Positions 47,556 through 64,000 are shown, counted from the first letter of the stretch. The stretch is DNA of 64,000 nt from Candidatus Hydrogenedentota bacterium (GCA_963668025.2 CAXXTH010000011.1:1-64000), one strand, 5' to 3'. Notes: generated from the letters alone by a model not told the origin. Numbers and translations are program-made.

Positions 47556-48089
47556 GTGTTCGGCCGTAGCCACAGGCGTGAGCGGAGGAAAAAGGCGGCC
47601 GTGGCGGCCAGTATAGCCCTATTCGCTATATTGTTGTTGGTTGTGGTACGCGTCATCAGGGAGAACGCTTTTTCTTCTGGGGGATTCAACCTGCCTACAT
47701 TAAGCGTGGGGCCTCAAGATGTGGGGGAGGCGTCGGACTTAATCGAGGCCCTTGGCCCCGAGCCTAATGATGACAAAGTGATCGAGGCGGTTAAGAATCC
47801 GAATCTACCCGGGCGGCTTCTCGCGATCGAATTTTTGGGGGAAGGTGGGTATGGCGATGCGATTCCGGTGCTCGAGCGCATCGTGCGCAGTTCAACCGAC
47901 ACCGCGAGCATGCGCGCCGCCGCGCTCGAATCCATTTTTCTTATCGCTGAACACAAAGGCCGCTGGCTGGCGGAAGAATTCAAGCAGCATCCTCAACTCA
48001 AGGACGCCGCGCAACGTATTATAAACGATCCCGACTCTATTCGTAACCGTCCATCACGCTGCCGGGCGCTTATACGGCTGGCAAAGTAG
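47556..48089 (+). CDS. Membrane-anchored HEAT-repeat protein (true start may be ATG 47513 if one base is extra)
   Basis: Basic stretch then TM; HEAT-like AIPVLERIV..MRAAALESI. Confidence 0.6.
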   Translation: MFGRSHRRERRKKAAVAASIALFAILLLVVVRVIRENAFSSGGFNLPTLSVGPQDVGEASDLIEALGPEPNDDKVIEAVKNPNLPGRLLAIEFLGEGGYGDAIPVLERIVRSSTDTASMRAAALESIFLIAEHKGRWLAEEFKQHPQLKDAAQRIINDPDSIRNRPSRCRALIRLAK

Positions 48090-48093
48090 CGCG

Positions 48094-49071
48094 TTAGCCT
48101 CGTTCGGGTTTGGCGTCCCGGCGCATTAGGGTACGCACAGCGCTCGATATGTCCGCGCCATCGAACAGGATATGGTGGACTTGCTCGGTGATAGGCATTT
48201 CGACATCGTATCGTTGCGCTAAGGCATACGCGGAACGGGCCGTGCGGACGCCTTCCGCCACCATGGCGGTCGCGCCCAGAATCTCGTTGAGCGTATGGCC
48301 CTTGGCGATTTTTTCACCCACCGAGCGGTTGCGTGAGTGGCGGCTTTCACACGTGACAATGAGGTCGCCCATGCCGCTCAACCCTGCGAATGTCAGCGAC
48401 TCCGCACCCATAGCCACACCCAGCCGTGCGATCTCCGCCAGGCCTCGCGTGATGAGGGCCGCTTTGGCGTTATCGCCCAACGCAAATCCATCACAAACGC
48501 CCGCTGCGATGGCGATAACATTTTTTAGGGAGCCGCCGAGTTCAACGCCCGCCAAATCGCCGCTGGTGTACACCCGGAAGGTGTCGGACATGAACGCCCG
48601 CTGGACCTTCTCACAATGGGCAGGTTCGTCGCCCGCCACCACCACGGAAGCAGGCAGATCCCGCGCCACTTCTTCCGCATGGCTCGGGCCAGACAATGCC
48701 ATCACCGGGCATGGCCCGCAGACGGAACGGATCACCTCGCTCATGCGCAGCAGGCTGTCATTCTCGATGCCCTTGGCCACACTAACCCGCAAGGTGTCTG
48801 GCGAGAAGCGCAATTGGGACACCACGGCGCGCATGGCATGGGAAGGCACGGCCAGCACAGCTATCTCGGCGCTGGGATCGGCTTCCCGCACCACCTCCAC
48901 CGATTCAGGCAGCAGCACATCTGGCAGAAAAAGCGGACTCTGCCGCGTGGTGCGCAATGCATCCGGGCCATCCTCTTCGCGGCACCATAAGCGCACGGAA
49001 TGGCCATTATTGCCCAGCAGGCGCGCCAGCGCCAGCCCCCAGCTTCCAGAACCTATCACTTGAATATTCAT
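48094..49071 (-). CDS. gpsA: NAD(P)H-dependent glycerol-3-phosphate dehydrogenase
   Basis: GSGSWG, KGIE, SGPSHAEEV, LKNVIAIAAG, GMGDLIVTC..SRN, AEGV. Confidence 0.96.
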   Translation of the reverse strand: MNIQVIGSGSWGLALARLLGNNGHSVRLWCREEDGPDALRTTRQSPLFLPDVLLPESVEVVREADPSAEIAVLAVPSHAMRAVVSQLRFSPDTLRVSVAKGIENDSLLRMSEVIRSVCGPCPVMALSGPSHAEEVARDLPASVVVAGDEPAHCEKVQRAFMSDTFRVYTSGDLAGVELGGSLKNVIAIAAGVCDGFALGDNAKAALITRGLAEIARLGVAMGAESLTFAGLSGMGDLIVTCESRHSRNRSVGEKIAKGHTLNEILGATAMVAEGVRTARSAYALAQRYDVEMPITEQVHHILFDGADISSAVRTLMRRDAKPERG

Positions 49072-49355
49072 AGTGCAAGGTTATACATCATTTTTGAGGA
49101 GAAATCGAGTAAAGGATGGCGCTCACGGCTGTTCCATGAGCTCCCTGCATTTTTGAAATCTTCACCGGCCAGATTTGATCAATGACGTTCAACTATGATA
49201 GCTTCAACTCTTATTGCATGGCAAAAAAAATGAAAAGAAGCTTTCTGTAAATGCAATGATACCGCATGCCACTTAGGGGGTGTAAAACTCGCCGGGGTAT
49301 TTAAATCGGGGGTATCCTTCAACAGAGGCAGGATAGGGAAAAGGATCTTCAATTC

Positions 49356-50045
49356 ATGAATGAGTATGCTTCTTTCATCAAAACGAAGTTTGACCAGTTC
49401 AAAAGGAAAAGCGCCTTTGCTCCGCTGGTCTGCTGGCCAGTATGCGATGATGACGGCATGATCCGCGCTTTCTTGCGGCCGGTGACGGCGGATTTCCGTA
49501 TCACCTCGCCTCATTATGTATCGTTATTCAGCCAATGGCGGCGGGAAAATCCCACCGTGTCGCGGGGCGTATTCGAGATTACCGACGAGAGAACCGAGCG
49601 CTGGCTGGATAATCTCGTCATCAATAGGGATGACCGTATCCTCTTCATGGTTGTAGATTTAAACGGAAAAGAGCTAGGCCACCTCGGTTTTTCCACTTTC
49701 AAATACGATGAGCGTGAAGCAGAGGTGGATTATGTGCTTCGAGGCGTGAAGGATACGCTCCCCGGCCTCATGTATTATGCGATGATCGCACTTATGCGCC
49801 TGGGCTTATCCGAGCTGGATCTGCGAGTCATTTCCTTGCGGGTTTTCGCGGATAATGAGCACGCGGTGAAGTTTTATGAACGGTGCGGCTTTTCCATCAC
49901 GGGGCGTATTCCTTTGTATTGGAGTGTATTGCCGGATGGGGAAGAACGTTGGGAAGAAGAACCTGCCCATGCAGGCCAGGAGCCGGGACGTTTCTATAGT
50001 GAGATGATATTGAACAATGCCTTCATTCAGTCCAAGATGGCTTAA
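49356..50045 (+). CDS. GNAT family N-acetyltransferase
   Basis: LRVFADNEHAVKFYERCGF motif. Confidence 0.8.
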   Translation: MNEYASFIKTKFDQFKRKSAFAPLVCWPVCDDDGMIRAFLRPVTADFRITSPHYVSLFSQWRRENPTVSRGVFEITDERTERWLDNLVINRDDRILFMVVDLNGKELGHLGFSTFKYDEREAEVDYVLRGVKDTLPGLMYYAMIALMRLGLSELDLRVISLRVFADNEHAVKFYERCGFSITGRIPLYWSVLPDGEERWEEEPAHAGQEPGRFYSEMILNNAFIQSKMA

Positions 50046-50065
50046 TCTGGGGAGGCTGTTAAATT

Positions 50066-51121
50066 TTGAACGTGCAACCGCCGAATAATCATGGCGTAGT
50101 GGCTGGCGCGGAAAGCGAAGCGGATTCGCTTTTCCGGCCTGTGATTAGCATTGTGACGCCTTGCTATAACGAGCAGGGAAATATTCATCGCGTTGTTAGC
50201 GCCGTACGGGATATCTTTCAGAACTTGCCTGCCGTGGCGTATGAGCACATTTTCGCCGACAATTGCTCCACCGATGAAACCCTTCCCATGCTGCGGGAGC
50301 TTGCCCGCACGGATAAACGGATAAAAATTATTGCGAACGCCCGGAATTTCGGCGCTTCCCGTTCCGTGTTCAATGCTTTGCTGGCCAGCAAAGGCAACGC
50401 GGCTATTCTATTGGCGGCCGATCTCGAGGATCCGGCGGAACTGATTCCCCTGTTCATTGAAAAATGGCGGGAAGGGAATCCCATCGTGTTCGGTGTCCGC
50501 GAAAAACGAAGCGGCTCGAAGCTCATGGCGTTGTTGCGGAAAATCTACTACCGGGTGTTGAATGCCGTTTCGGAAGATGAACTCCTGAATGATGCAGGCG
50601 ATTTTGTTCTTATTGATCAACGGGTGATCGAAGTATTGCGGCATGTCAATCATCAAGAACCCTACCTGCGGGGCATCTTGACATCCCTCGGATTTCCCTA
50701 TACTGGCATCAAGTATTGTATGAGTAAACGGACCTGGGGTAAATCCAAGACTAATCCCATCTATTTGATTATGTATTCGCTCAATGCCTTGGTAGCCCAT
50801 TCCCGTTTTCCGATAAAATTAGCGACGCTTGGCGGGCTGGTGGTTGCTTTTTTTTCGCTGTTGTATGCAGTAGTCACGTTTGCGGTAAAACTGTTTGTAG
50901 GCAGTTCTGCCCCGCCTGGTCTAGTTACTGTCGCGATAGGGGTTTTCTTTTTAGGCGGCTGCCAGTTATTTACATTAGGCTTCATAGGTGAATATATCGC
51001 TTCCATGCACCGGCTGATGAAAAATCACCCGCTCGTGATCGAACGGGAGCGGATAAATTTCGATGGCAATACAGGCGATGAAGCAGAAGCTAGTTCAGAA
51101 TCTAGCATGAAAAGAGAGTAG
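50066..51121 (+). CDS. GT2 polyprenyl-phosphate glycosyltransferase (GtrB/ArnC-like)
   Basis: PCYNE, DNCSTD, RNFG, ADLEDP, GDFVLID; two C-terminal TMs and IGEYI. Confidence 0.88.
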   Translation: MNVQPPNNHGVVAGAESEADSLFRPVISIVTPCYNEQGNIHRVVSAVRDIFQNLPAVAYEHIFADNCSTDETLPMLRELARTDKRIKIIANARNFGASRSVFNALLASKGNAAILLAADLEDPAELIPLFIEKWREGNPIVFGVREKRSGSKLMALLRKIYYRVLNAVSEDELLNDAGDFVLIDQRVIEVLRHVNHQEPYLRGILTSLGFPYTGIKYCMSKRTWGKSKTNPIYLIMYSLNALVAHSRFPIKLATLGGLVVAFFSLLYAVVTFAVKLFVGSSAPPGLVTVAIGVFFLGGCQLFTLGFIGEYIASMHRLMKNHPLVIERERINFDGNTGDEAEASSESSMKRE

Positions 51122-51126
51122 AAGAT

Positions 51127-52282
51127 ATGGCTTTAAGCATTGGCAAACGTACGGATTCCATCGTTCAGTCCGAAATCCGCAACATGTCGATCGAATGTGA
51201 TCGGGCAGGCGGCATCAACCTATCTCAAGGCATATGTGATCTTCCCGTGCCGGAACCAGTCAGGCAAGGCGCGCATGACGCTATCGAGGCGGGCGTAAAC
51301 CAATATACGCGCTATGATGGGCTGGCGGAGTTGCGTGCCGCCATCGCGGAAAAGCTTGTTTCATACAACCGCATTCCCGCCGATCCCGCGAAAAATATCA
51401 CCGTATCCAGCGGCTCGACGGGGGCGTTGTATTCGGCAGGGCTGGCGCTGATGAATCCTGGCGATGAAGTCATTCTTTTCGAGCCGTATTACGGATACCA
51501 TCTCAACACGATTCTGGCGCTTGATCTCGTACCGCGCTATGTCCGTTTAACGCCGCCCCATTGGACTTTCGACGCGGCTGACCTGGAAGCAGTGGTGACG
51601 CCCCGGACGCGCGCCATCATGATCTGCACGCCATCCAATCCCTGCGGCAAAGTGATGACATGCGAAGAGCTGGAATTCCTGGGCAATTTCGCCATTAAGC
51701 ATAATATCTTCGTGTTCACGGATGAGATTTATGAATACTTCGTCTACGATGGCCGTGAGCACATCAGCCCCGCGTCGTTGGAGTGTATCCGTGACCGCAC
51801 GATTTCGATCTCAGGCTATTCGAAAACCTTCAGCATCACGGGCTGGCGCATCGGATATGCGCATTGCGATGAACGCTGGACGCAGATGATCGGTTATGTG
51901 AACGATTTGGTGTATGTCTGCGCGCCTGCTCCCTTGCAGTTAGGCGTGGCGCGTGGCATCCGCGAACTGCCGCATGCGTATTATGAACAGCTTTGCCAAA
52001 CCTACGCCCATAAACGCGCCATGATTTGCACGACCTTGGAGGAATGCGGCATAACGCCCTATCCGCCACAGGGCGCTTATTATGTGCTGGCGGATGTTTC
52101 CCGCCTTCCGGGCGGCACAAGCAAAGAAAAAGCCCATGTATTTGCTGAAGCAAACAGGTGTGGCTTCTGTTCCAGGGAGCGCTTTCTATCATGATGGCGC
52201 TGGTGAAAAGCTGGTGCGTTTCTGTTTCGCCAAGGATGAGGAAGTATTGTCGGAAGCCTGCGAACGGCTCCGAAAACTGTAG
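51127..52282 (+). CDS. Class I/II PLP aminotransferase (extra C near 52135)
   Basis: INLSQG, TPSNPCG, DEIY, SKTFSITGWRIG; +1 frame supplies VPGSAF..VRFCFAK. Confidence 0.88.
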
Positions 52283-52293
52283 GAAGTGAAGAG

Positions 52294-53397
52294 ATGCGCA
52301 AGAAGATAGCATTTGCTGGACCATGGATTACGCAAAAAGAAATTGATTATGTCACCGACGCGACATGGAACGGTTTCTACGAAACATATGACCAGCATGC
52401 AAAAAAACTAGAAAAGACTATTTGTGAATATCTAGGCGTCAAGCATGCTATTGCGACGCATTGCTGCACGCTGGCGCTGCATCTTGCGTGCGCCAGCCTC
52501 GGCCTCAAGGAAGGCGACGAGGTCATCTGCACGGATTTCAGTTGGATCGCCACGGCGTACGCCATCAAATACACGGGAGCAGAGCCGGTATTGGTGGACA
52601 TCGACCCGGATACCTGGTGCATTTCGCCCGCAGCTATCCGCGCCGCCATCACGCCCAAGACGAAAGCGATCATGCTGGTGCATTGTTTTGGCCATCCCGC
52701 CCAGATGGATGAGATCATGGCCATTGCCCGTGAACACCGCCTCCGGGTGATTGAAGACGCTGCACCCGCGCTGGGCGCGGAATTCAACGGCCAAAAGACC
52801 GGAACCTTCGGCGATTTCGCCTGTTTCAGCTTCCAAGGCGCCAAGCTGACCGTCAGCGGCGAAGGCGGCGTGGTTGTCACTAATGACGATGAGCTTTATG
52901 AGAAGGCCGCGCTGCTGGCCTCGATGGGCCGGACGGATTCGCAGGCGGTCTTCTGGTCGGACGCCCTTGGATTCCAATATACTATCGCGAATTTGACCGC
53001 CGCACTGGCGCTGGCGCAAGTCGAGCGCATCGACGAACTACTTTGGAAAAAGCGCCAAATCTTCAATTGGTATCTTGAGCGCCTGAAAGACGTGCCAGGA
53101 ATTCATCTCATCGTCGAGAAGGAAGGCTGCAAGAGCAATTACTGTTATCCATCCATGTTGCTCGATGAGGATGTACGCACGCCCCGCGATGAGATTTTGC
53201 GGCAATTCCGGGAGCGCAATATTCATTGCCGGCCTGGATTCCCGCGCATGAGCCGTTTCCCCACACTCGAACAGCGGTATCCCAATCCGGCCGCCCAGGC
53301 CGTCGAGGAACGGGGTATATCGCTGGCAGCCGCGGCAAATCTGAATGAAGAAGACATTGATTTCGTCTGTGAAAGCTTAAAGGAACTTGTACTCTGA
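52294..53397 (+). CDS. DegT/DnrJ/EryC1/StrS sugar aminotransferase
   Basis: CTLALHLA, IEDAA, FSFQGAK (PLP lysine present), GEGG. Confidence 0.9.
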   Translation: MRKKIAFAGPWITQKEIDYVTDATWNGFYETYDQHAKKLEKTICEYLGVKHAIATHCCTLALHLACASLGLKEGDEVICTDFSWIATAYAIKYTGAEPVLVDIDPDTWCISPAAIRAAITPKTKAIMLVHCFGHPAQMDEIMAIAREHRLRVIEDAAPALGAEFNGQKTGTFGDFACFSFQGAKLTVSGEGGVVVTNDDELYEKAALLASMGRTDSQAVFWSDALGFQYTIANLTAALALAQVERIDELLWKKRQIFNWYLERLKDVPGIHLIVEKEGCKSNYCYPSMLLDEDVRTPRDEILRQFRERNIHCRPGFPRMSRFPTLEQRYPNPAAQAVEERGISLAAAANLNEEDIDFVCESLKELVL

Positions 53398-53425
53398 AAG
53401 TCGGAAGAAGGGCACAATAAATAAC

Positions 53426-55210
53426 ATGCGTGTAGCGGATTATATAACGGACCAGATTTACAAAGCGGGCGGCGAGGATGTATTTCTCATCACTGGCGGC
53501 ATGATCATGCATCTCATGGATGCGCTTTTACTACATCCGCATCAGCGGTATGTATGCTGCCATCACGAGCAGGCCGCCGCCATGGCGGCGGAAGCTTATG
53601 GACGATATACCGGGCGTTTGGGCGCGGCTTATGTCACGGCGGGGCCAGGCGCCTTGAACACCTTGACTGGCGTCGTGGGAGCGTATTTAGACGGTGCGCC
53701 GTGTATTATCGTGGCGGGACAATCGAAAATCTCGCAGGCAAAAGTAGTTGGGCCCCGCCAATTCGCGCATCAAGGTTTTCATACGCTTCCTATTTTCCAG
53801 CAAGTGACGAAATACGCCGTGATGCTGGATGATATTACCCGTGTGCGGTATGAAGTAGAGAAGGCGATCTACATGGCCACCTCGCACCGGGTAGGGCCGG
53901 TGTGGCTCGAGGTGCCCATCGACATTCAAGGCGCGCCTTTTGAGCCAAGCCAATATGAAGGATACACACCCGAGCCTTCGGAACAGGCCTTATTCAAGCC
54001 GGATAGCGCGGATGTCGCCCGTGTGGCGGAAGCCCTTCGTAACAGCCGCCGCCCCAGTATTATCGCGGGCGCGGGCGTCCGGGCTTCGGGCGCGGTGGAG
54101 GCCTTGCAGCGGTTTATCGAGAAACGCAATATCCCAATGATGACCTCCCGCCTTGGCATGGATCTGATTAGTGTTGATCATCCTCTATATGTGGGCAGGC
54201 CCGGCACTTACGGTGATCGCCCCGCTAATTTTACGGTGCAGAATTCTGACTTGCTTATTGTGCTTGGCTGTCGACTTGCCATTGGCTTGGTTGGTTATGA
54301 TTATCAAGGATTCGCTCCTAACGCCACAAAAATCATGGTGGACGTGGACGTAAAAGAACTAGAGAAGCCTTCGGTCGTGCCCGATATCCCTGTGCTCGCG
54401 GATGTCGATTTGTTTTTACGCGCGTTGGAGGAGGCGTTAGGCGATTTCCGATTTGACAATCAACCATGGGTGGAACAAACCCAGCACTGGAAACACACAT
54501 ATCCAACGGCATTGCCTGAGTATGCGGAAGAAACAGAAGGCGTGAATTCCTATCATTTTACGGATGTTTTTTCACGCAAATTGCCAGAAGACGCCGTTTT
54601 TTCGTGTGATACGGGTTCTTGCTTCCACGTGCATGCCCAGGCCTTTCGAGTGAAATACGGCCAGCGCCATATCATCACCGGCGGGCTTTCGACCATGGGA
54701 TATTTTCCAGGATCGGTTGGCGTAGCTGTCGCGAGGAAAGATCGTGATGTGTATTGCATCACGGGCGATGGGTCTTTCCAAATGAACCTTCAAGAGCTGC
54801 AAACTATCGCACATCACCATCTTCCAGTAAAAATAGTGATGTATCATAATAGCGGTTATTTGCTCATTCGCCTGACGCAAGTAAATTTCCAGGAAAGCCG
54901 CTTCATGGGCATCGATACGCCTACGGGCATGAGCACGCCGGATATGGAAAAGATCGCCGACGCGTATGGCATTCATTTCATCCGCATCGCGTCACGAGAT
55001 GAACTAGACGCCAAGCTGGATGAGTTAATTGCGTACAAAGGGCCGGTTATTTGTGAAGTGCGCATGCCCAGTGACCAGCTTTTAGGCCCTCGCGTAGCAT
55101 CCCGAAAACTAGATGATGGCAGCATGGTCTCTTGCCCATATGATGACATGTTCCCATTTTTACCCCGGGATGAATATGAACAAAACAATGTGTGTGGGCG
55201 TATTGTATAA
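53426..55210 (+). CDS. ThDP-dependent acetolactate-synthase-like enzyme (YerE-like carboligase)
   Basis: HHEQAAAMAAE, TAGPG, GDGSFQMNLQEL..HNSGY ThDP motif; sugar cluster context. Confidence 0.85.
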   Translation: MRVADYITDQIYKAGGEDVFLITGGMIMHLMDALLLHPHQRYVCCHHEQAAAMAAEAYGRYTGRLGAAYVTAGPGALNTLTGVVGAYLDGAPCIIVAGQSKISQAKVVGPRQFAHQGFHTLPIFQQVTKYAVMLDDITRVRYEVEKAIYMATSHRVGPVWLEVPIDIQGAPFEPSQYEGYTPEPSEQALFKPDSADVARVAEALRNSRRPSIIAGAGVRASGAVEALQRFIEKRNIPMMTSRLGMDLISVDHPLYVGRPGTYGDRPANFTVQNSDLLIVLGCRLAIGLVGYDYQGFAPNATKIMVDVDVKELEKPSVVPDIPVLADVDLFLRALEEALGDFRFDNQPWVEQTQHWKHTYPTALPEYAEETEGVNSYHFTDVFSRKLPEDAVFSCDTGSCFHVHAQAFRVKYGQRHIITGGLSTMGYFPGSVGVAVARKDRDVYCITGDGSFQMNLQELQTIAHHHLPVKIVMYHNSGYLLIRLTQVNFQESRFMGIDTPTGMSTPDMEKIADAYGIHFIRIASRDELDAKLDELIAYKGPVICEVRMPSDQLLGPRVASRKLDDGSMVSCPYDDMFPFLPRDEYEQNNVCGRIV

Positions 55211-55240
55211 CTAAATGCCAAGATCGAGGAGACTTGCTTC

Positions 55241-56155
55241 GTGACACAGCCAGCGCCACGAAAAATGAATGTCGCGATTCTCGGCAGCGGCAATATAGGC
55301 ACGGATCTGCTGATTAAAGTGATGCGGTCGCCCTATTTGCATTGCTCTTTGTTTATCGGCAGGCGATTTGATTCGCCTGGCATGGCCAAGGCGATGAGCC
55401 TCGGGGTGCGCGTGTCGGACAAAAGCATCCACGCCCTCGAAGAAGAGCCGGATTGCTGCGAATTAGCCTTTGACGCTACATCCGCCCAAGACCATCTGCG
55501 CCATTGGCCCATTTTGCAACGCCTGGGCATTCGCGCCATTGATCTGACGCCCGCGAAGCTGGGTGTTCTATGCGTGCCCGCCGTGAATCTCGCGGATTGC
55601 CTGGATGCGCCTAACGTGAACACCATCAGTTGCGGCGGCCAGACATCCATCCCGATAGCGCATGCCATCGGGCAAGTTCATGACGAAGTGGAATATATCG
55701 AGGTGGTTTCCACGATTGCCTCCAGAAGCGCTGGCCCGGGCACGCGCGTGAATATCGATGAATACATCAACACCACAGAAACGGGCATTCTCGCGTTCTC
55801 GAACTGCAAGCGTGCGAAAGTGATTTTGAATCTGAATCCGGCTGTACCGCCCATCATCATGCAGACAACGGTTTTCGCCAAAGTGGCCCATCCCAACATG
55901 CCCGCACTGCAAACTGCCGTTGAGGCCATGGTGCAGAAAATCCGCACCTATGTGCCTGGGTATCAGCTTGTGCTCGGGCCGTTGATCGAAGATGGACGCA
56001 TCATTACCATGGTTCGCGTGCAAGGCCTCGGCGATTATCTCCAAAAATATGCCGGCAACCTGGATATTATCAATTGCGCCGCATTGACGGCCGCGGAAGC
56101 GTTTGCCCAGCATCATCAAAGTGGGGGAAAGGAAGCGGATGCATGCCCAAGGTAA
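55241..56155 (+). CDS. mhpF: Acetaldehyde dehydrogenase (acylating), DmpF/MhpF family
   Basis: GSGNIGTDL, DATSA, IDLTPA, SCGGQ (catalytic Cys), SAGPGTR, YAGNLDII. Confidence 0.9.
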   Translation: MTQPAPRKMNVAILGSGNIGTDLLIKVMRSPYLHCSLFIGRRFDSPGMAKAMSLGVRVSDKSIHALEEEPDCCELAFDATSAQDHLRHWPILQRLGIRAIDLTPAKLGVLCVPAVNLADCLDAPNVNTISCGGQTSIPIAHAIGQVHDEVEYIEVVSTIASRSAGPGTRVNIDEYINTTETGILAFSNCKRAKVILNLNPAVPPIIMQTTVFAKVAHPNMPALQTAVEAMVQKIRTYVPGYQLVLGPLIEDGRIITMVRVQGLGDYLQKYAGNLDIINCAALTAAEAFAQHHQSGGKEADACPR

Positions 56156-57168
56156 TTGTTCATGACCCCACGCTGCGCGATGGCAACCATGCCGTGAAGC
56201 ACCAGATCACTGCGGAACAAACGGCCATATACGCCGAAGCCGCGGATGCGGCGGGCATTCCCATCGTCGAAGTAGGGCACGGCAACGGCTTGGGCGCTTC
56301 ATCGCTTCAAGTGGGCTTAAGCCCGCTTGATGACGCCACGCGCCTGCGCGTTGCGCGGGAGAAGCTGCGCCATTCCAAGCTGGGCGTCCATGACATACCC
56401 GGCTTCTCGACCATCGAACGCGATCTCGGACCGGCCCTCGATTTAGGTGTCGATGTGGTCCGCGTCGCCTGCCACTGCACCGAGGCGGACATCACCCAGC
56501 GCCACATCGGATATGTGCGTGAACGGGGCAAGGAAGCGTATGGCACGCTCATGATGAGCCATATGGCCTCCGATGAGGTGCTGTTGGAAGAATGCCAAAA
56601 GCTGGAATCTTATGGGGCGGACGGCGTCGTGCTGATGGACTCGGCGGGCGCGTCGTTGCCGTCGGACGTGCGGTCCCGCATCGGGTTGCTGGTCCGCAAT
56701 CTGTCTATCCCTGTTTTTTTCCATGCCCATAATAATCTGGGAATGGCCATCGCCAACTCGCTGGCGGCGTTGGAAGCCGGCGCTTCCGGAGTGGATGGAT
56801 GCGCCTGCGGTTTTGGTGCGGGAGCGGGCAACGCCCAGCTCGAAGTGCTGGTCGCCGTCCTCGAAAAGTCCGGCTATTCCACGGGGATAGACCTGTATAA
56901 GGTGCTGGATTTGAGCGATATCGCCCGAAAATATCTTGTGACGGAGCTGCCAAGCATCAAGCCGGTCAGCATCGTTAGCGGGCTTGCCGGGGTGTTCTCG
57001 GCCTTTGCCAAACACGTGGAACGCGCCGCGAAAGAATATGACGTGGACCCGCGCGATATCTTCTTCCGGCTCGGTGAAATGCGCGTGGTTGCGGGCCAGG
57101 AAGACCTGATCATCGAGGTGGCCGAACAGCTCCATGCCGCGAAAAAAGAAAAGGGAGGGCGCTCATGA
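56143..57168 (+). CDS. mhpE: 4-hydroxy-2-oxovalerate aldolase, DmpG/MhpE family
   Basis: DPTLRDGNH, EVGHGNGLG, HCTEAD, HAHNNLG, GAGAGN, GQEDLI. Confidence 0.9.
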   Translation: MPKVIVHDPTLRDGNHAVKHQITAEQTAIYAEAADAAGIPIVEVGHGNGLGASSLQVGLSPLDDATRLRVAREKLRHSKLGVHDIPGFSTIERDLGPALDLGVDVVRVACHCTEADITQRHIGYVRERGKEAYGTLMMSHMASDEVLLEECQKLESYGADGVVLMDSAGASLPSDVRSRIGLLVRNLSIPVFFHAHNNLGMAIANSLAALEAGASGVDGCACGFGAGAGNAQLEVLVAVLEKSGYSTGIDLYKVLDLSDIARKYLVTELPSIKPVSIVSGLAGVFSAFAKHVERAAKEYDVDPRDIFFRLGEMRVVAGQEDLIIEVAEQLHAAKKEKGGRS

Positions 57169-58226
57169 TCACCGAACAACGGCGGATTGTGGCGGAAGAC
57201 TGCGCCCAAGCGCTCGATAAAGGACACGAAGCGCTGCGCGAGTTGCATGGGGCGGTGCTGCTCGCCACGGGAGGCACGGGATTTCTCGGCGCATGGCTCG
57301 CCGAGATGATCACGCGCCTGAACGACAGTTATGGGTTTGGCTGCAAGCTATACTTGTTATCAAGCCGCGCCAGCGCTTTCGCGGAACGGCTGCCCTATCT
57401 GGCCGCACGCAAGGAAATCACCCTCATCGAGCGCGATGTTCGAAGCGTAATCGAGCTGCCCAGCGATATCACCCATATCATCCACGCCGCCGCATCGCCG
57501 GATAGCCGCTTGCATGTTTCCGATCCGCTTCGCACCATTCAAGTGATAGTCCAAGGCGCCACGGCCGTACTCGAGGCGGCGGTCCGCTTGCCGGAGTTGC
57601 AACGCATCCTCCACATTAGTTCGGGCCAAGTGTATGGGCATCAGCCTTATGAATTGCCCAATTTGCCGGAAGAATTCTGGGGGGCGCTCGATCCCAATGC
57701 CATAGGCGCGGCTTACCCAGAAGCCAAGCGGTGCGCCGAAACCATCTGCGCCGCCTACCGGCACGGATACCGCATGCATATCGCCATCGCCAGGCCATTC
57801 GCCTATATCGGGCCTCATCAGCCCCTCGACAAGCCATGGGCCGTGAATAATTTCCTGCGGGATGGCCTGCTTGGCGGCCCTATCCGCATCCTAGGCGCTC
57901 CCGAAACCGTGCGCAGCTATTTATATGCCAGCGATATGGCGTTTTGGATGCTGCGCATGCTTGCATCGTCGAAAACAAGCCAATGCTTCAATATTGGCAG
58001 TCCCGAAGGCGTAACACTGCATGACTTGGCGCGGCGCATCGCGGCCCAGTGTGGCGGCCAAGTGGAAGTGCAACTGCCGGTTCTGCCAGCGGAGGCCCCG
58101 CCCCCGACGCGTTTCGTGCCCGATACGAGCCTGGCGAAAAAGACCCTCGGCTTGGAGGCCACTGTTGGCTTGGACGACGCCATCACCCGCACCCTGCGGT
58201 GGCACCGGAGCGCCGCGCCATGCTGA
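57165..58226 (+). CDS. NAD-dependent epimerase/dehydratase (extended SDR)
   Basis: TGGTGFLG, HAAA, SSGQVYG and YPEAK (YxxxK) motifs. Confidence 0.88.
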   Translation: MITEQRRIVAEDCAQALDKGHEALRELHGAVLLATGGTGFLGAWLAEMITRLNDSYGFGCKLYLLSSRASAFAERLPYLAARKEITLIERDVRSVIELPSDITHIIHAAASPDSRLHVSDPLRTIQVIVQGATAVLEAAVRLPELQRILHISSGQVYGHQPYELPNLPEEFWGALDPNAIGAAYPEAKRCAETICAAYRHGYRMHIAIARPFAYIGPHQPLDKPWAVNNFLRDGLLGGPIRILGAPETVRSYLYASDMAFWMLRMLASSKTSQCFNIGSPEGVTLHDLARRIAAQCGGQVEVQLPVLPAEAPPPTRFVPDTSLAKKTLGLEATVGLDDAITRTLRWHRSAAPC

Positions 58227-58744
58227 TAGCCGGGTGGAGCGCGGTGTTTTTTCTTGCCGCGCTGCTTGCATCAATCGTGCGCTGGCGGGGCCTGCCGGTG
58301 CGCCAGCGCGCCATGTGCATCCTTTCCAGCTCACTGGCGGTTATTCCTGTGCTAGCCGCATTGCTGTGCGGTTTGCAATTTTTAGGACTGCCTTGGCGTT
58401 TTTTGGCATTATCTTGGGTGGAGGTGATATATGTCTTCATCGCTTCAGGAGCGTTTTCCTACGTGAGCATGGTGGTGGTATCCCTCGCGTCCGATGGCGA
58501 AAGCCCCACCTTGCGGCTAGTGGCCGCACTCGAGGCCGCCGCCCCTGATGGGCTGTCCATGGCCGATGCCCGGGAGCGGTTATCCGTTCGTGGTGAAGTA
58601 ATGGCCCGCCTTGATACGCTGCTGGCGGATGGATGGGCGGAGATGCGGGGAGAGCGTTGCATGCTCACTTCAAAAGGGCGGTTTCCGCTTCAATTAGCGC
58701 GTTGGGTCCGGCGTATTGCAGGCCTATCGAACGGGCTTGGATGA
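58220..58744 (+). CDS. Membrane protein with a C-terminal winged-helix-like domain (paralog 1)
   Basis: About three TMs then SPTLRLV..DGLS..RLDTLLADGW..LTSKG. Confidence 0.65.
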   Translation: MLIAGWSAVFFLAALLASIVRWRGLPVRQRAMCILSSSLAVIPVLAALLCGLQFLGLPWRFLALSWVEVIYVFIASGAFSYVSMVVVSLASDGESPTLRLVAALEAAAPDGLSMADARERLSVRGEVMARLDTLLADGWAEMRGERCMLTSKGRFPLQLARWVRRIAGLSNGLG

Positions 58745-58751
58745 CCACACG

Positions 58752-59264
58752 ATGCAAAGTGAATATTTAATACATGCATTATGCCTGGCGTGCGGCTTGG
58801 CCTGCCACATCGTGGCGCTTCTACTATTGGCGCGAATGTCTAATGCGGTTTTTCGCAATATATTGCTCGCATTTTCGTCGGGATTAATAGTGTTAGCCCT
58901 TTCCCAAACAGCAACTTTTTTCCTATTCCGGCTTAACGTAGCCGATTTCCTGGCAATGGCTATCTTGAATCTGGCGCTATATGGGATATTAGCGTTTCTT
59001 GTGTGCCATTTTCTTCTTCTAGGCCTCTGCTCATTGCGGTTGCGCATTCTTGAGGTGCTGGACGAATATCCCGAAGGCCTTACGGGAGAAGCGCTTTGTG
59101 AAGCACTCGGGGTGGAAGAGCTTACTCAACGCCGCCTTGACCGCCTCCAGGCAAGCGGGGCAGTCAAGAACAACAATGATCACATCCAGCTTGGGCGCAG
59201 TTATCTGATATTGATCTCTCATACAATACTGTTTTTAAGGCGGTATATTGGAAAGTGTTGCTAA
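58752..59264 (+). CDS. Membrane protein with a C-terminal winged-helix-like domain (paralog 2)
   Basis: About three TMs then SLRLRIL..EGLT..RRLDRLQASGAV. Confidence 0.65.
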   Translation: MQSEYLIHALCLACGLACHIVALLLLARMSNAVFRNILLAFSSGLIVLALSQTATFFLFRLNVADFLAMAILNLALYGILAFLVCHFLLLGLCSLRLRILEVLDEYPEGLTGEALCEALGVEELTQRRLDRLQASGAVKNNNDHIQLGRSYLILISHTILFLRRYIGKCC

Positions 59265-59412
59265 CTCTGGTTGTTGGACTGTAACGAGTAAAGCTGTTAC
59301 GATGAATAGATTGATGCCTCGGGGAGCATGGGCTAACCCAATATAATGCGGCATAAGGCAAAAAACTGAGGATTGAATAACGTGCAATTACACCTCGCCA
59401 AACTTAGGATTA

Positions 59413-60105
59413 GTGAATGATATAATGGACAAAGTGAAATCATATTTGTCTAGTGCTATTTTCGCTAGATTTCCGGCCTCGATAGCGCTCGGGCTTTCCT
59501 TTGTACTTTTAATTACGCCTATGGATGCGCTATGGAAGAGTCATAAATACAATTATTGGGGTATTGACAAACCGAATATCTATCTCGATATAGATCCCGT
59601 TTTGAGCATGATGTCTACAAATGGCTATTGTGGGCCTACTGGCGCATTGTGGTACATTCTGCGCAAATACACGCCTGAACGAGAGCAGATGCCCATTATC
59701 ATTTTCCCGCCTATTAATCCAGGAACAATGGGTAAAGCAGACGCTAGAATTTATGGAATGCTCGAGCCTAATCCCGAAGGCTGGTCTATCGAAGATGCCG
59801 CGGCGCCCAATTTATCTAAAGAGCAAGTGGAAGCGTTATTCTCTATCATCGATTATGATATGGTTAGAATGCCGACGAAACCTTCCGGCATAAAAGGGTG
59901 GATAATAAAAAATAGGCAAATGCCGCAATGTATTTTTTGCATCCCTAGCAATTTGTTGAAACTATATGCCGGCAATATGGCGTCTGCCCCAGGAATAGAC
60001 GCGCGTTTGAAGCTTTATGTCCGGTATGCCGAATATGGAAAAATGAAAAGGTATATATTGCTGGTGCCATTGAACTACCTAGAATTACTAGATGAAAAAT
60101 CCTGA
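59413..60105 (+). CDS. Hypothetical protein with an N-terminal membrane anchor, AT-rich
   Basis: 230-aa ORF with one hydrophobic segment. Confidence 0.6.
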   Translation: MNDIMDKVKSYLSSAIFARFPASIALGLSFVLLITPMDALWKSHKYNYWGIDKPNIYLDIDPVLSMMSTNGYCGPTGALWYILRKYTPEREQMPIIIFPPINPGTMGKADARIYGMLEPNPEGWSIEDAAAPNLSKEQVEALFSIIDYDMVRMPTKPSGIKGWIIKNRQMPQCIFCIPSNLLKLYAGNMASAPGIDARLKLYVRYAEYGKMKRYILLVPLNYLELLDEKS

Positions 60106-60192
60106 ATTCCGGTGCAAAAGAAAACACTGCTGAATGGTTAATATACGCATAATGTTTTTCCATGAATAGCAGTATATGTTAGGGGAGACTAA

Positions 60193-61758
60193 ATGGAGCC
60201 AAATATTCCATATTGGTTCGCATCCACGCTGTATTATAATATATTGCTGTTATCAGGGATCTCTTCCGCTTGCATTCTAAATGTAAAATTTAAAACGATT
60301 CCGATGATGGTTTTTTGCCATTTTGCAGGGCTTGTATATATTTCATTAATAGCCACCCTCTCTTTGCTTTGCCTGGATCAAATTCATTTGCCTGTGCTTA
60401 TCTGCATGTCATTTATTCCAATAACGATTTTTATATACAAAAACAATGAGAATAATGACTTTTTGAAGCGGTTGTTCTACATGCTTATTCTCGGTAATCT
60501 CATGCACATATTCTCAGATGAAATCGGCCAGCTTACGCATGTCATGCAAGCAGATTCCGTACACTCGTATTTTGCAGGCTTTGCCATAAGCAAGCATGGA
60601 GTGTCCATGCTCAAATCGTATACGGCTGACGATCCGTTTCTCAATCCTGGCGCTATACTCTGCTTCATCCGATGGCCATTTATCGTATTAAATATCGCGG
60701 CTGCCGCTTCTTGCGGGCTTTTTACGCTCCCGTGGCTCCTTCCCCTTCTTGCCATGCAAATAGGCCTTTTGATTTATTGGGGAATATCGCAAATCTGTTG
60801 CCAGAAAAAAAACACCTTGTTTTTTTCAGTGCTTGCGGCAGCCGCTTTCGGAGCTGCGTTTTTTACGCCGGAATCTAAGTTTCTACTGGCTAATTTGAGG
60901 GCAAACATGGTTTCATCCTGTTTCACCATGGCAGGCCTCATCTTTTTCGTTGTGGGCGAATCCAAAAAGAAAATTTCGTATTCAAACGTGGGCCTTATTT
61001 TACTGGGAGCATGCATTTCCATCCGGCCTTCAGGAGTTGGCATGATGCTGCCCTTGTATATGTATTGCATTCTTACATCCGAAACAATGGCCTCAAGAAA
61101 CCTTATGATGAATATTTTCATTGTATTGGTGACTATTATCAATATACCCGTTTTTCAATGGATGCTCTTCCATGGGGTCAAACTGAATGGGAATGAAGCC
61201 AGTTTCTCTTCATTATTTTATACATTCCCCGTATGTGTATGCGGTATGTTGTTCGCGTTGTGTTTCCGGTTTTTCCGAAAATGGATAAGCCACTTAGCGC
61301 TGCCAGTAGGACTGCTAATCATTTTCGAACTGGCCATTCTTTTCTTCTTATTTGCTCCGCATTTATGGCCCGTTTATAAGTTTTTATTTTTATACGTGTT
61401 TGACTGCAAATATATGTCTTATCTAGGCATTCTTCTCACAGCTTCTTCCGTGGCGTGCCTTTTTCTCCCCGATTCACATGCAGCCAAGAGATTTGGCGTT
61501 TTGATGCTAGTGGCGTTCATTTCGTTTCTTGGGTTTTACTTCATGGTGCTCTCCATGACGAATCCCGAATGGTTTTATTATACGGAAAAAATAACTACGG
61601 CGACGAAGTTCTCGGAATTTCGCGGCGCCTCAATCATGCGGGATTACTCGACAATCACCCAGTTGCTGCCGGTTTTCATCGTGTTTACTATTTGCGGATA
61701 CTGGGAAAAAGCTTTTACCAAAAAACAGGATAACTTAGCTATTTGTACGGGAAATTAG
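60193..61758 (+). CDS. Polytopic membrane protein, AT-rich (possible GT-C glycosyltransferase or polymerase)
   Basis: Roughly 12-14 hydrophobic segments; RBS GGGGAG; QADS acidic loop motif. Confidence 0.6.
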   Translation: MEPNIPYWFASTLYYNILLLSGISSACILNVKFKTIPMMVFCHFAGLVYISLIATLSLLCLDQIHLPVLICMSFIPITIFIYKNNENNDFLKRLFYMLILGNLMHIFSDEIGQLTHVMQADSVHSYFAGFAISKHGVSMLKSYTADDPFLNPGAILCFIRWPFIVLNIAAAASCGLFTLPWLLPLLAMQIGLLIYWGISQICCQKKNTLFFSVLAAAAFGAAFFTPESKFLLANLRANMVSSCFTMAGLIFFVVGESKKKISYSNVGLILLGACISIRPSGVGMMLPLYMYCILTSETMASRNLMMNIFIVLVTIINIPVFQWMLFHGVKLNGNEASFSSLFYTFPVCVCGMLFALCFRFFRKWISHLALPVGLLIIFELAILFFLFAPHLWPVYKFLFLYVFDCKYMSYLGILLTASSVACLFLPDSHAAKRFGVLMLVAFISFLGFYFMVLSMTNPEWFYYTEKITTATKFSEFRGASIMRDYSTITQLLPVFIVFTICGYWEKAFTKKQDNLAICTGN

Positions 61759-61789
61759 TGTGTGGATTTGCATATAATCGTGAGCTTAA

Positions 61790-62368
61790 ATGCTAATGGG
61801 CAAACGCGCGTGGATTACTCTCGATAGCCGGGAAGCCTATTCGGATCGCGGATTCACGGTAGTCGAAAACCAAGTGGCCCGCCCAGATGGAGCGGTTGCT
61901 CCATACGGCGTGGTTCATGCCTTGCCGGGAACATCCGTCGTTGTGTTGTCTTCTTCTTTAGAAGTCACGCTTGTGCGCCAGTATCGTTACCCGCTAGACC
62001 GGTATACATGGGAGCTGCCGGGTGGTGGTGTTGAAGAAAACGAAACTCCATTATGCGGCGTCCAACGGGAACTCTGGGAAGAAACAGGCATTACCGCCCG
62101 GCGCTGGATGCCCCTGGGAGACGTGGTTCACGTGAACAGCAGCATTTCCACCCAAACGAGTTTTGCTTTTCTTGCGTGGGATCTAGTAGGCAGAAGCGGC
62201 CCGAAAGACGAAATGGAGATATCGGATATTCAACTTGTTACAATCGAGGCAGCGATAGAGATGGCGGAGCGCGGCGTAATTTCCGATGCGCTCAGCCAGA
62301 TAGCTTTATTGCGCGCCTACAATGTCATCCGAGATGCGAACTGGCGGGACACCGTTTTTGCGAAATAA
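61790..62368 (+). CDS. NUDIX hydrolase (ADP-ribose/NDP-sugar pyrophosphatase-like)
   Basis: Nudix box GGGVEENETPLCGVQRELWEETG; RQYRYP. Confidence 0.9.
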   Translation: MLMGKRAWITLDSREAYSDRGFTVVENQVARPDGAVAPYGVVHALPGTSVVVLSSSLEVTLVRQYRYPLDRYTWELPGGGVEENETPLCGVQRELWEETGITARRWMPLGDVVHVNSSISTQTSFAFLAWDLVGRSGPKDEMEISDIQLVTIEAAIEMAERGVISDALSQIALLRAYNVIRDANWRDTVFAK

Positions 62369-62395
62369 TGCGAATGAGCTTATAAGGGGACTATA

Positions 62396-63163
62396 ATGAA
62401 GTGCGTGATTTTAGCTGGTGGATATGGCACGCGTATCAGCGAGTATACGGATGTGCGCCCTAAGCCGATGATCGAGATCGGGAATATGCCCATTTTGTGG
62501 CATATCATGAAAACCTATTCGGCTCATGGCATCAATGATTTTGTCATCTGCCTCGGATACAAATCCTATGTGATAAAAGAATATTTCTCGAATTACTATC
62601 TCCACATGTCCGATGTCACCTTCGATATGTCCAACAATAATATGACCATTCACCACAGTTATTCTGAACCATGGCGTGTGACGCTGATCGACACGGGGAT
62701 CAACACCATGACGGGAGGCCGCCTCAAGCGCGCGGAGGATTTCCTGGATGAGGATGATTTCTGTTTCACCTACGGCGATGGGGTGAGCGATATCAATATA
62801 ACGGATTTGATCGCCTTTCATAAAAAGCACGGCGGGCTTGCGACCTTGACCGCCGTGCAGCCGCCTGGCCGTTTCGGCGGGCTCCGGCTGGATAAAGGGC
62901 GGGTATGCGAATTCCGTGAGAAGCCCGCGGGTGATGGCGGCTGGATCAACGGCGGCTTCTTTGTGCTGTCGCCCAAGGTACTCGAGTATATTGATGATGA
63001 CGCCACTGTCTGGGAGCGGGAGCCTTTGGAACGCCTTGCGGCGGAACGGCAGCTCCATGCCTACAAGCATCTCGGTTTCTGGCATGCGATGGACACGTTG
63101 CGCGATAAAATTGCATTGGACAAGCTCTGGGACAACGGACAAGCGCCGTGGAAACAGTGGTAA
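62396..63163 (+). CDS. rfbF: Glucose-1-phosphate cytidylyltransferase
   Basis: LAGGYGTRISE..PKPM, TMTGGRLKR, TYGDG, WINGGFF, GFWHAMDTLRDK. Confidence 0.96.
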   Translation: MKCVILAGGYGTRISEYTDVRPKPMIEIGNMPILWHIMKTYSAHGINDFVICLGYKSYVIKEYFSNYYLHMSDVTFDMSNNNMTIHHSYSEPWRVTLIDTGINTMTGGRLKRAEDFLDEDDFCFTYGDGVSDINITDLIAFHKKHGGLATLTAVQPPGRFGGLRLDKGRVCEFREKPAGDGGWINGGFFVLSPKVLEYIDDDATVWEREPLERLAAERQLHAYKHLGFWHAMDTLRDKIALDKLWDNGQAPWKQW

Positions 63164-63172
63164 GGAGCGCGG

Positions 63173-64000
63173 ATGAACACGGAGATCTATCGCGGGGCGC
63201 GCGTCCTGCTGACGGGGCATACCGGATTCAAAGGGTCATGGCTTAGCATTTGGCTTCAACGCCTTGGCTCGAAAGTCACCGGTTTAGCCCTCGATCCACC
63301 CACCCAGCCTAATCTGTTTACAGAAGCCAACGTCGGTGGGCTTGTCACCGATCTGCGGGGAGACATCCGAAATCTGGATGACGTGGCGGAAGCCGTCCGC
63401 CAGGCCGAACCGGATGTGGTTTTCCATCTGGCCGCCCAGCCGCTCGTCCGGTTGTCGTACAACGAACCTAAGTACACGTTTGACACCAATGTGGGTGGAA
63501 CAGTCAACGTGCTCGAGGCGTTGCGCGCCAGCAAGTCGGTGCGCGCCATCGTTGTCGTGACATCGGATAAATGTTACGAAAACCGGGAATGGCCCTATGC
63601 CTACCGCGAGTCCGATCCGCTTGGCGGACGTGATCCGTATAGCGCATCTAAAGGAGCGGCGGAGATCGTCGCGGCATCATATGCCCGCTCGTTTTTTGAT
63701 GGGGTTGGCGTTCCGTTGGCTACGGCCCGCGCAGGCAATGTCATCGGCGGCGGCGACTGGGCCGCCGACCGCATCATCCCAGACGCCGTGCGGGCATTGC
63801 AGGATGGCCAGCCCGTGCCCGTGCGCAATCCCGATGCCGTCCGGCCTTGGCAGCATGTATTGGAGCCGCTGTGCGGCTATCTGGCGCTGGGAGCATGCTT
63901 GTTGGCCCGTCCAGACGGCATCCATTACGCGGAAGCGTGGAACTTCGCGCCTGCGGCCAGCTCTTGCCAGCCGGTGCGCGCACTGATTTCGGCCTTTATC
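63173..64000 (+). CDS. rfbG: CDP-glucose 4,6-dehydratase (runs off the window end)
   Basis: Translated by eye: TGHTGFKGSWL, FHLAAQPLV, TSDKCYEN, DPYSASK, RAGNVIGGGDW, RPWQHVLEPL. Confidence 0.95.
   Translation, partial: MNTEIYRGARVLLTGHTGFKGSWLSIWLQRLGSKVTGLALDPPTQPNLFTEANVGGLVTDLRGDIRNLDDVAEAVRQAEPDVVFHLAAQPLVRLSYNEPKYTFDTNVGGTVNVLEALRASKSVRAIVVVTSDKCYENREWPYAYRESDPLGGRDPYSASKGAAEIVAASYARSFFDGVGVPLATARAGNVIGGGDWAADRIIPDAVRALQDGQPVPVRNPDAVRPWQHVLEPLCGYLALGACLLARPDGIHYAEAWNFAPAASSCQPVRALISAFI

Follow-up and report, generated by a model that had tools for sequence, protein, structure and literature searches.

The window analyzed here, the first 64,000 nucleotides of contig C11 (CAXXTH010000011.1:1-64000; GCA_963668025.2, Candidatus Hydrogenedentota bacterium, a genome of 6.1 Mb that is 93.75% complete), was examined together with the next 20 kb of the contig. 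It carries a gene cluster that, judged from its sequence, quite probably makes a CDP-activated sugar of the erwiniose type, a 3,6-dideoxyhexose with a 1,3-dihydroxybutyl branch at C-4 and ten carbons in all. We take 4-C-(1,3-dihydroxybutyl)-3,6-dideoxyhexose to be the systematic name of erwiniose; its ten-carbon count follows because the published work on this sugar describes a "C4 branch" (PMC9306805). Four plus-strand genes form the core of the cluster: a thiamine diphosphate (ThDP)-dependent carboligase resembling YerE and JanthE, the predicted branching enzyme (53426–55210; all three TPP_enzyme Pfam domains); an acylating acetaldehyde dehydrogenase resembling DmpF, BphJ, and ErwJ (55241–56155; TIGR03215, 369.5 bits, cut-off 282); a class II pyruvate aldolase (4-hydroxy-2-oxovalerate aldolase) resembling DmpG, BphI, and ErwI (56143–57168; TIGR03217, 370.7 bits, cut-off 286); and an extended short-chain dehydrogenase/reductase (SDR) predicted to reduce the branch C-1′ ketone, the role of YerF and ErwF (57165–58226; Pfam Epimerase and GDP_Man_Dehyd). 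The original prediction had placed these four enzymes here, and Pfam and NCBIfam searches confirmed their positions and families. It had further proposed that the DmpF–DmpG pair runs in the biosynthetic direction and that a YerE-type enzyme grafts the resulting four-carbon branch onto a CDP-sugar, giving a product of about ten carbons. This mechanism is supported by our analysis; it is not new, since it equals the erwiniose scheme published in 2022 for Pectobacterium (PMC9306805), predicted here for another organism. The case made here is built on gene families, gene order, conservation of the cassette, and active-site residues; donor specificity was shown elsewhere, for ErwE, and we infer the rest.

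In Pectobacterium atrosepticum SCRI1043, the erwiniose cluster encodes ErwE (ThDP enzyme), ErwF (reductase), ErwJ (acetaldehyde dehydrogenase), and ErwI (aldolase), and these genes adjoin those for CDP-4-keto-3,6-dideoxyglucose (Steitz et al. 2022, PMC9306805). The route proposed there converts acetyl-CoA to acetaldehyde, which is followed by aldol addition to pyruvate, ThDP-dependent branching, and reduction; in vitro, ErwE accepted 4-hydroxy-2-oxopentanoate and rejected pyruvate (PMC9306805). The window resembles this system in that the same four kinds of enzyme are adjacent, beside genes of the rfbF, rfbG, and rfbH type, and in its predicted logic, by which 4-hydroxy-2-oxopentanoate made by the aldolase would serve as the ThDP donor before reduction of the branch ketone. 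It differs in gene order, which is E-J-I-F here, whereas accession numbers suggest E-F-J-I in P. atrosepticum (PMC9306805). Its ThDP enzyme falls in a large, separate-looking lineage (the relation to ErwE being judged by eye from the printed ErwE sequence); it adds a GNAT N-acetyltransferase, two aminotransferases, a GT2 glycosyltransferase, a Nudix gene, and membrane proteins of no family; and its host belongs to a small phylum (135 species genomes).

The arrangement of the cassette is not due to chance, because the same gene order recurs across related loci. A metagenome scan that used a 15-sequence alignment recovered 342 relatives of the ThDP enzyme, of which the best 80 (54–69% identity) were kept and their loci searched by tblastn with the window's proteins; as the closest relatives, these 80 loci do not speak for more distant YerE-like enzymes. 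DmpF was present in 75 of the 80 and DmpG in 70. Where at least 2200 bp lay downstream of the ThDP gene, ThDP, DmpF, and DmpG were directly consecutive in 57 of 60 loci, and the order held in 34 of the 35 loci whose flanks are long on either side. Among the three exceptions, L033 and L088 have DmpF-DmpG-SDR upstream (the L088 contig stops just upstream of DmpG, so that DmpF itself is not visible), and L027 has DmpF followed by other genes. Twelve loci did not show both DmpF and DmpG, ten of them with a downstream flank that is too short. At least two of RfbF, RfbG, and RfbH were found in 38 of the 45 loci of at least 12 kb, and 56 of the 80 have an SDR homologue (identity of 38% or more), placed after DmpG in most. 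A scan of genome contigs yielded three further loci: a planctomycete metagenome-assembled genome (MAG; L008, 69% identity of the ThDP enzyme) and a Silvanigrella MAG (L009, 63%), both with ThDP-DmpF-DmpG-SDR alongside GT2 and RfbF/G/H genes, and Pseudobutyrivibrio (32%), in which no DmpFG lies near the ThDP gene. The cassette also occurs in three other genomes of the window's own phylum (L108–L110). The link between DmpFG homologues and such clusters thus extends to two distant genomes, to three from the same phylum, and to 70 to 75 of the 80 metagenome loci, contrary to the possibility, raised with the original prediction, that the homologues might be unlinked elsewhere. Two metagenome loci, L022 and L084, hold about 1.3 kb of extra DNA between DmpF and DmpG. 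At L087:1153-4703, two tandem ThDP genes encode proteins 45% and 63% identical to the window enzyme.

The other possibility raised at the outset was that the ThDP enzyme is a true acetohydroxyacid synthase (AHAS), and this too failed. The protein scored about 366.5–366.7 bits on TIGR00118, for which the cut-off is 538, and this was the best of the acetolactate-synthase models among the 25 NCBIfam families listed for it, all of these models being below cut-off. Two true AHAS large subunits lie elsewhere in the genome (683 and 665 bits on the same model), and the ThDP enzyme is 28–31% identical to them. A housekeeping AHAS identity was ruled out by the sub-cut-off score and by these two genuine enzymes. 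The best solved relative of the window enzyme is JanthE (8rph, 412 bits); PpYerE (5ahk) scored 231 bits, a level no different from that of AHAS entries (∼230 bits). JanthE, from Janthinobacterium sp. HH01 (8rph, 8rpi, 8rpj), is a YerE-like enzyme that takes ketone acceptors and whose donors include 4-hydroxy-2-oxovalerate; its donor range is broad, and its ThDP motif is CDG, called unusual there, whereas the window enzyme has the canonical GDG (PMC12188165). At E ≤ 1e-60, a protein search with the window enzyme returned 7811 proteins, the best 120 of them 61–71% identical. Those of the 120 that carry a name are called "acetolactate synthase" or "thiamine pyrophosphate-binding protein" and, once, "hypothetical protein," and their named sources include Planktothrix and Limnothrix (cyanobacteria), Geomonas, Anaeromyxobacter, and a planctomycete.

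The dehydrogenase and the aldolase retain the hallmarks of their families. The GSGNIGTDL nucleotide loop and CGGQ stretch of the DmpF-like enzyme align with solved homologues; we take the cysteine of CGGQ to be the catalytic residue. Aligned to DmpG (1nvm), the window aldolase keeps the residues at Arg17, Asp18, His21, His200, and His202, which presumably serve in catalysis and metal binding. The pair thus resembles the DmpG/DmpF, BphI/BphJ, and HsaF/HsaG complexes in fold and family, in passing the equivalog cut-offs, and in keeping the presumed catalytic residues. Unlike those complexes, it is predicted to work in the synthetic direction, and it stands without partner catabolic genes.

Genes for the acceptor sugar lie in the same plus-strand run, which spans from ∼49.3 kb to beyond the window end as judged from open reading frames (ORFs) and their Pfam and NCBIfam matches. 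The glucose-1-phosphate cytidylyltransferase RfbF/DdhA (62396–63163, plus strand; TIGR02623, 451.5 bits, cut-off 300) is followed by the CDP-glucose 4,6-dehydratase RfbG/DdhB (63173 to C11:64243, plus strand, extending beyond the window; the full gene scores 458 bits on TIGR02622, also over cut-off); both belong to the cluster, as had been proposed. Beyond the window, where a search for RfbH (E1) had been suggested, RfbH is present (C11:64240-65553; NF011936, 698.7 bits, cut-off 423), and the E3 position after it is held by a 241-aa flavin reductase (C11:65556-66281) that matched the NAD_binding_1 domain only; no (2Fe-2S) ferredoxin domain was found in it. A homologue of this flavin reductase was detected at L009, and just 10 of the 80 metagenome loci have one. 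The description of the genes as tightly packed stood for the four cassette genes and not for the cluster as a whole: by ORF coordinates, the ThDP and DmpF genes are 30 bp apart, DmpF and DmpG overlap by 13 bp, and DmpG and the SDR gene overlap by 4 bp, whereas ∼4.2 kb, holding genes of no family and the Nudix gene, separates the SDR gene from rfbF.

From these assignments, a six-step route can be proposed. RfbF, RfbG, RfbH, and a reductase would convert glucose-1-phosphate to CDP-4-keto-3,6-dideoxy-D-glucose. The DmpF-like enzyme would reduce acetyl-CoA to acetaldehyde, which the DmpG-like aldolase would join to pyruvate, giving 4-hydroxy-2-oxopentanoate, probably of 4R configuration. The ThDP enzyme would decarboxylate this acid and attach the acyl-anion equivalent so formed to the sugar at its C-4 ketone, and the SDR, whose nearest solved proteins are UDP-glucuronate decarboxylases (113 bits), would reduce the new branch ketone. 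Finally, the GT2 enzyme would probably load the sugar onto polyprenyl phosphate, from which it would pass to a surface glycan.

The configuration assigned to the donor comes from the active site of the aldolase. Relative to DmpG (1nvm), the window aldolase has Phe285 at Tyr291 (BphI Tyr290), His83 at Leu88 (BphI Leu87), and Ile85 at Leu90 (BphI Leu89), whereas Leu and Tyr occupy the DmpG 88 and 291 positions in the solved aldolases of DmpG type (1nvm, 4lrs, and 8ih7). Phe occupies the Tyr291 position in all 67 related loci in which the position is covered; at the Leu88 position, the 70 loci comprise 51 with His, 16 with Phe, 2 with Leu, and 1 in which it is not covered. According to a review by the laboratory behind the work, BphI yields the 4S acid only, Y290F abolishes its stereocontrol, the doubly substituted L87N/Y290F and L87W/Y290F are active on the 4R acid only, and L89A admits longer aldehydes (PMC3962088). 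The Phe and His pair of the window aldolase thus matches the 4R-handling BphI variants described there and not the natural 4S enzyme. Because a Phe plus His or Phe pair mirrors the engineered 4R-only variants, we predict a natural 4R aldolase; the cassette enzymes probably produce the 4R acid, which would match the 4R donor preference of ErwE (PMC9306805). A short aldehyde is in keeping with the bulky Ile85, which stands where BphI has Leu89. We found no mention of such a residue prediction in the main text or the readable supplement text of PMC9306805.

A tree of 123 aldolase sequences, the window's own plus 122 that each represent a cluster at 50% identity, placed the window aldolase within a 24-leaf clade (support 0.998) in which no member has Tyr at the 291 position and 20 have Phe; in the neighboring 18-leaf clade, 10 members have Tyr, and 14 have Leu at position 83. 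A different protein type, HMGL-like, accounts for 77 of the 123 sequences. It occurs in 14 of the 135 phylum genomes (L094–L107), mostly as an ORF of 670–710 aa (363–709 aa overall), is 34–39% identical to the window aldolase, has Tyr at DmpG His21 and His at Tyr291, and is sometimes encoded beside GT2 or DegT genes. In a plasmid search, the closest plasmid-borne relatives of the window aldolase were from Streptomyces plasmids (54–58% identity). The plasmid DmpG of Streptomyces venezuelae (in the region 50344-69342 of NZ_CP018075.1) carries Phe at position 83, Ala at 85, and Phe at 285; the Ala, which corresponds to BphI Leu89, would suit a longer aldehyde. Genes for an FAH-family protein, DmpF, DmpG, KAS III, acyl carrier protein, CoA ester lyase, and MaoC make up its neighborhood, a non-sugar setting and the one plasmid context examined; the search yielded no named sugar cluster.

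Several observations weigh against assigning an erwiniose-type product. At L027, where the flank is ample, DmpF is present without DmpG, the sole real exception to the linkage. Nor is the Phe signature specific to sugar clusters, since the DmpG of the Streptomyces plasmid, whose neighborhood is fatty-acid-like, has it too. A classical E3 has a ferredoxin domain, and the reductase after RfbH is without one. The ThDP enzyme may not be a narrow ErwE orthologue, since at least three diverged ThDP lineages serve one cassette with its DmpFG and SDR: the window's clade, that of L108 and L109 (41–44% identity), and that of L110 (33–36%). The ThDP enzymes encoded at L108:7878-9650, L109:8173-9936, and L110:266-2044 are 36–42% identical to the window's, while DmpG in these loci is 67–75% identical. 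Judged only by eye, the ErwE sequence in the supplement of PMC9306805 looks nearer to the L108/L109 lineage in its ThDP-motif stretch. Both lineages compared with solved structures, the window's and that of L108, had JanthE as their best match, and the L110 enzyme, DmpFG-linked and from the window's phylum, carries the CDG motif as JanthE does. JanthE also takes pyruvate and other donors (PMC12188165). Because this nearest solved relative is so permissive, gene linkage is the only basis on which donor choice in the window enzyme is predicted. The GNAT and the two aminotransferases may alter the end product.

Other readings of the cluster were weighed against these data. That DmpFG might be an ordinary catabolic pair, completing aromatic meta-cleavage or a similar degradative route and lying beside sugar genes by chance, draws on the scores of both proteins above the curated cut-offs of catabolic equivalog models. 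The original prediction had noted that no meta-cleavage genes lie in the window, and this extends to the whole genome as tested: neither TIGR03220 (DmpE hydratase) nor TIGR03211 (catechol 2,3-dioxygenase) has a match in it, and it holds a single DmpF and a single DmpG over cut-off. The catabolic role was ruled out by this single copy of each gene and the lack of either marker. Since, moreover, the pair is embedded in a sugar operon and overlaps with its genes, the cassette is syntenic with CDP-sugar genes over many loci, and the aldolase clade, devoid of Tyr291, stands apart from Leu/Tyr-type representatives, we regard the chance of catabolic function as vanishingly small. A yersiniose-type pathway would leave the ThDP enzyme to add a two-carbon acetyl branch from pyruvate, with DmpFG acting later, in branch extension, or elsewhere, on acetaldehyde. 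Its precedent is YerE of Yersinia pseudotuberculosis (yersiniose A), which, like the enzyme predicted here, is a ThDP carboligase acting on CDP-4-keto-3,6-dideoxy-D-glucose ahead of an NAD(P)H reductase, YerF; unlike it, YerE uses pyruvate, its branch has two carbons, and it has no described aldolase/dehydrogenase pair (PMC9306805). The acceptance of pyruvate by JanthE among its many donors points the same way. Set against these, ErwE, the one DmpFG-linked enzyme assayed, refuses pyruvate, and its authors excluded aldol extension after branching (PMC9306805); the ThDP-DmpF-DmpG order in 57 of 60 loci is also hard to explain unless the product of the aldolase is the donor. A pyruvate-derived branch is accordingly very improbable.

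The accessory genes raise a further alternative, in which the product is not erwiniose. A GNAT N-acetyltransferase (49356–50045, plus strand; Pfam Acetyltransf_3, 4e-11; a weak 32 bits on the PseH model, cut-off 93), a class I/II, amino-acid-type aminotransferase (51127–52194, plus strand; Aminotran_1_2, 4e-54), and a DegT-type nucleotide-sugar aminotransferase (52294–53397, plus strand; DegT_DnrJ_EryC1, 9e-105) lie directly upstream of the ThDP gene. The DegT protein and GNAT might turn a ketone, possibly the branch C-1′ carbonyl, into an acetamido group, or a second, 4-amino sugar might be drawn from the shared CDP-4-keto intermediate; either form would give one or more undescribed products. 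The best solved relative of the DegT protein is perosamine synthetase (3bn1, 250 bits), a C-4 sugar aminotransferase, and branch ketones can be modified by transaminases (PMC9306805). The trio recurs, after the SDR gene, in 5 of the 80 metagenome loci, with GNAT homologues of 31–41% identity, class I/II aminotransferases of 61–67%, and, in the same five, DegT proteins of 66–79%. The trio is missing from the other 75 loci, and the class I/II aminotransferase, which among solved proteins scores best (up to 176 bits) against YbdL and aspartate, aromatic, and kynurenine aminotransferases, is left without a role in such a scheme. The window and all five trio loci keep their SDR, so the trio does not simply replace the reductase. 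Taken together, an amino or acetamido product in either form is rather unlikely, and an erwiniose-type sugar is the reading we prefer.

Genes between the cassette and rfbF, and the GT2 gene before it, may serve later steps. The GT2 enzyme (50066–51121, plus strand; Pfam Glycos_transf_2) is of the polyprenyl-phosphate type and resembles PgfS and ArnC, scoring below cut-off on both NCBIfam models (167 and 93 bits, respectively). Its homologues occur at L008 and L009, at L108–L110, and in 22 of the 80 metagenome loci, and a lipid-carrier route leading from it to a surface glycan is plausible. ORFs at 58.0–61.8 kb have no Pfam or NCBIfam family and no homologue in 82 related loci. Two of the ORFs in this segment (58049–61758) are small, with hydrophobic stretches at the N terminus and a weak winged-helix-like tail; one has 230 aa, and another encodes a polytopic protein of 521 aa. 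One of the small ORFs, at 58716–59264 (plus strand; a similar ORF ends at 58744), encodes a predicted membrane protein with no Pfam family at a threshold of 0.001 (only MarR_2, at 0.024) and no homologue among the 82 loci, and its membership in the pathway is uncertain. The 521-aa membrane protein (60193–61758, plus strand), possibly a GT-C-type transferase or polymerase, also gave no Pfam or NCBIfam match; it sits in a stretch of 43% G+C, the content falling to ∼43% over 60–62 kb. By Atlas features, GT39/PMT_2 appears in 7 of its 30 nearest clusters, on 20% of members, and we regard this likeness as a lead only. A Nudix hydrolase (61790–62368, plus strand; Pfam NUDIX, 3e-17) follows, with no counterpart found in the 82 loci. 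The cluster is flanked by gpsA on the minus strand (48094–49071) and, after the flavin reductase, by a MacAB-TolC efflux operon that runs on the other strand. A scan of 48000–64000 for promoters and terminators gave counts not above those of shuffled sequences (16 versus 16.1 and 22 versus 18.7) and is uninformative about operon limits.

As a tentative extension, which we hold possible and still doubtful, the trio and the branch reductase might together make one or more undescribed amino or acetamido ten-carbon branched sugars, placed at the cell surface via a polyprenyl-phosphate carrier and the GT-C-like enzyme, with cassette aldolases that are naturally 4R-selective.

The published understanding of the pathway is unchanged by this locus, which is a further example in a little-studied phylum. 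What it adds to PMC9306805, as far as the readable text of that paper goes, is the aldolase residue signature and the trio of GNAT and aminotransferases beside the cassette; natural 4R selectivity of the aldolase, if true, would be of interest for biocatalysis. The cassette is spread far more widely than the single plant pathogen of the original description. For annotation, the ThDP enzyme and the DmpFG pair, to which public records give the names "acetolactate synthase" and "aromatic catabolism," respectively, most likely mark, here, a rare branched surface sugar.

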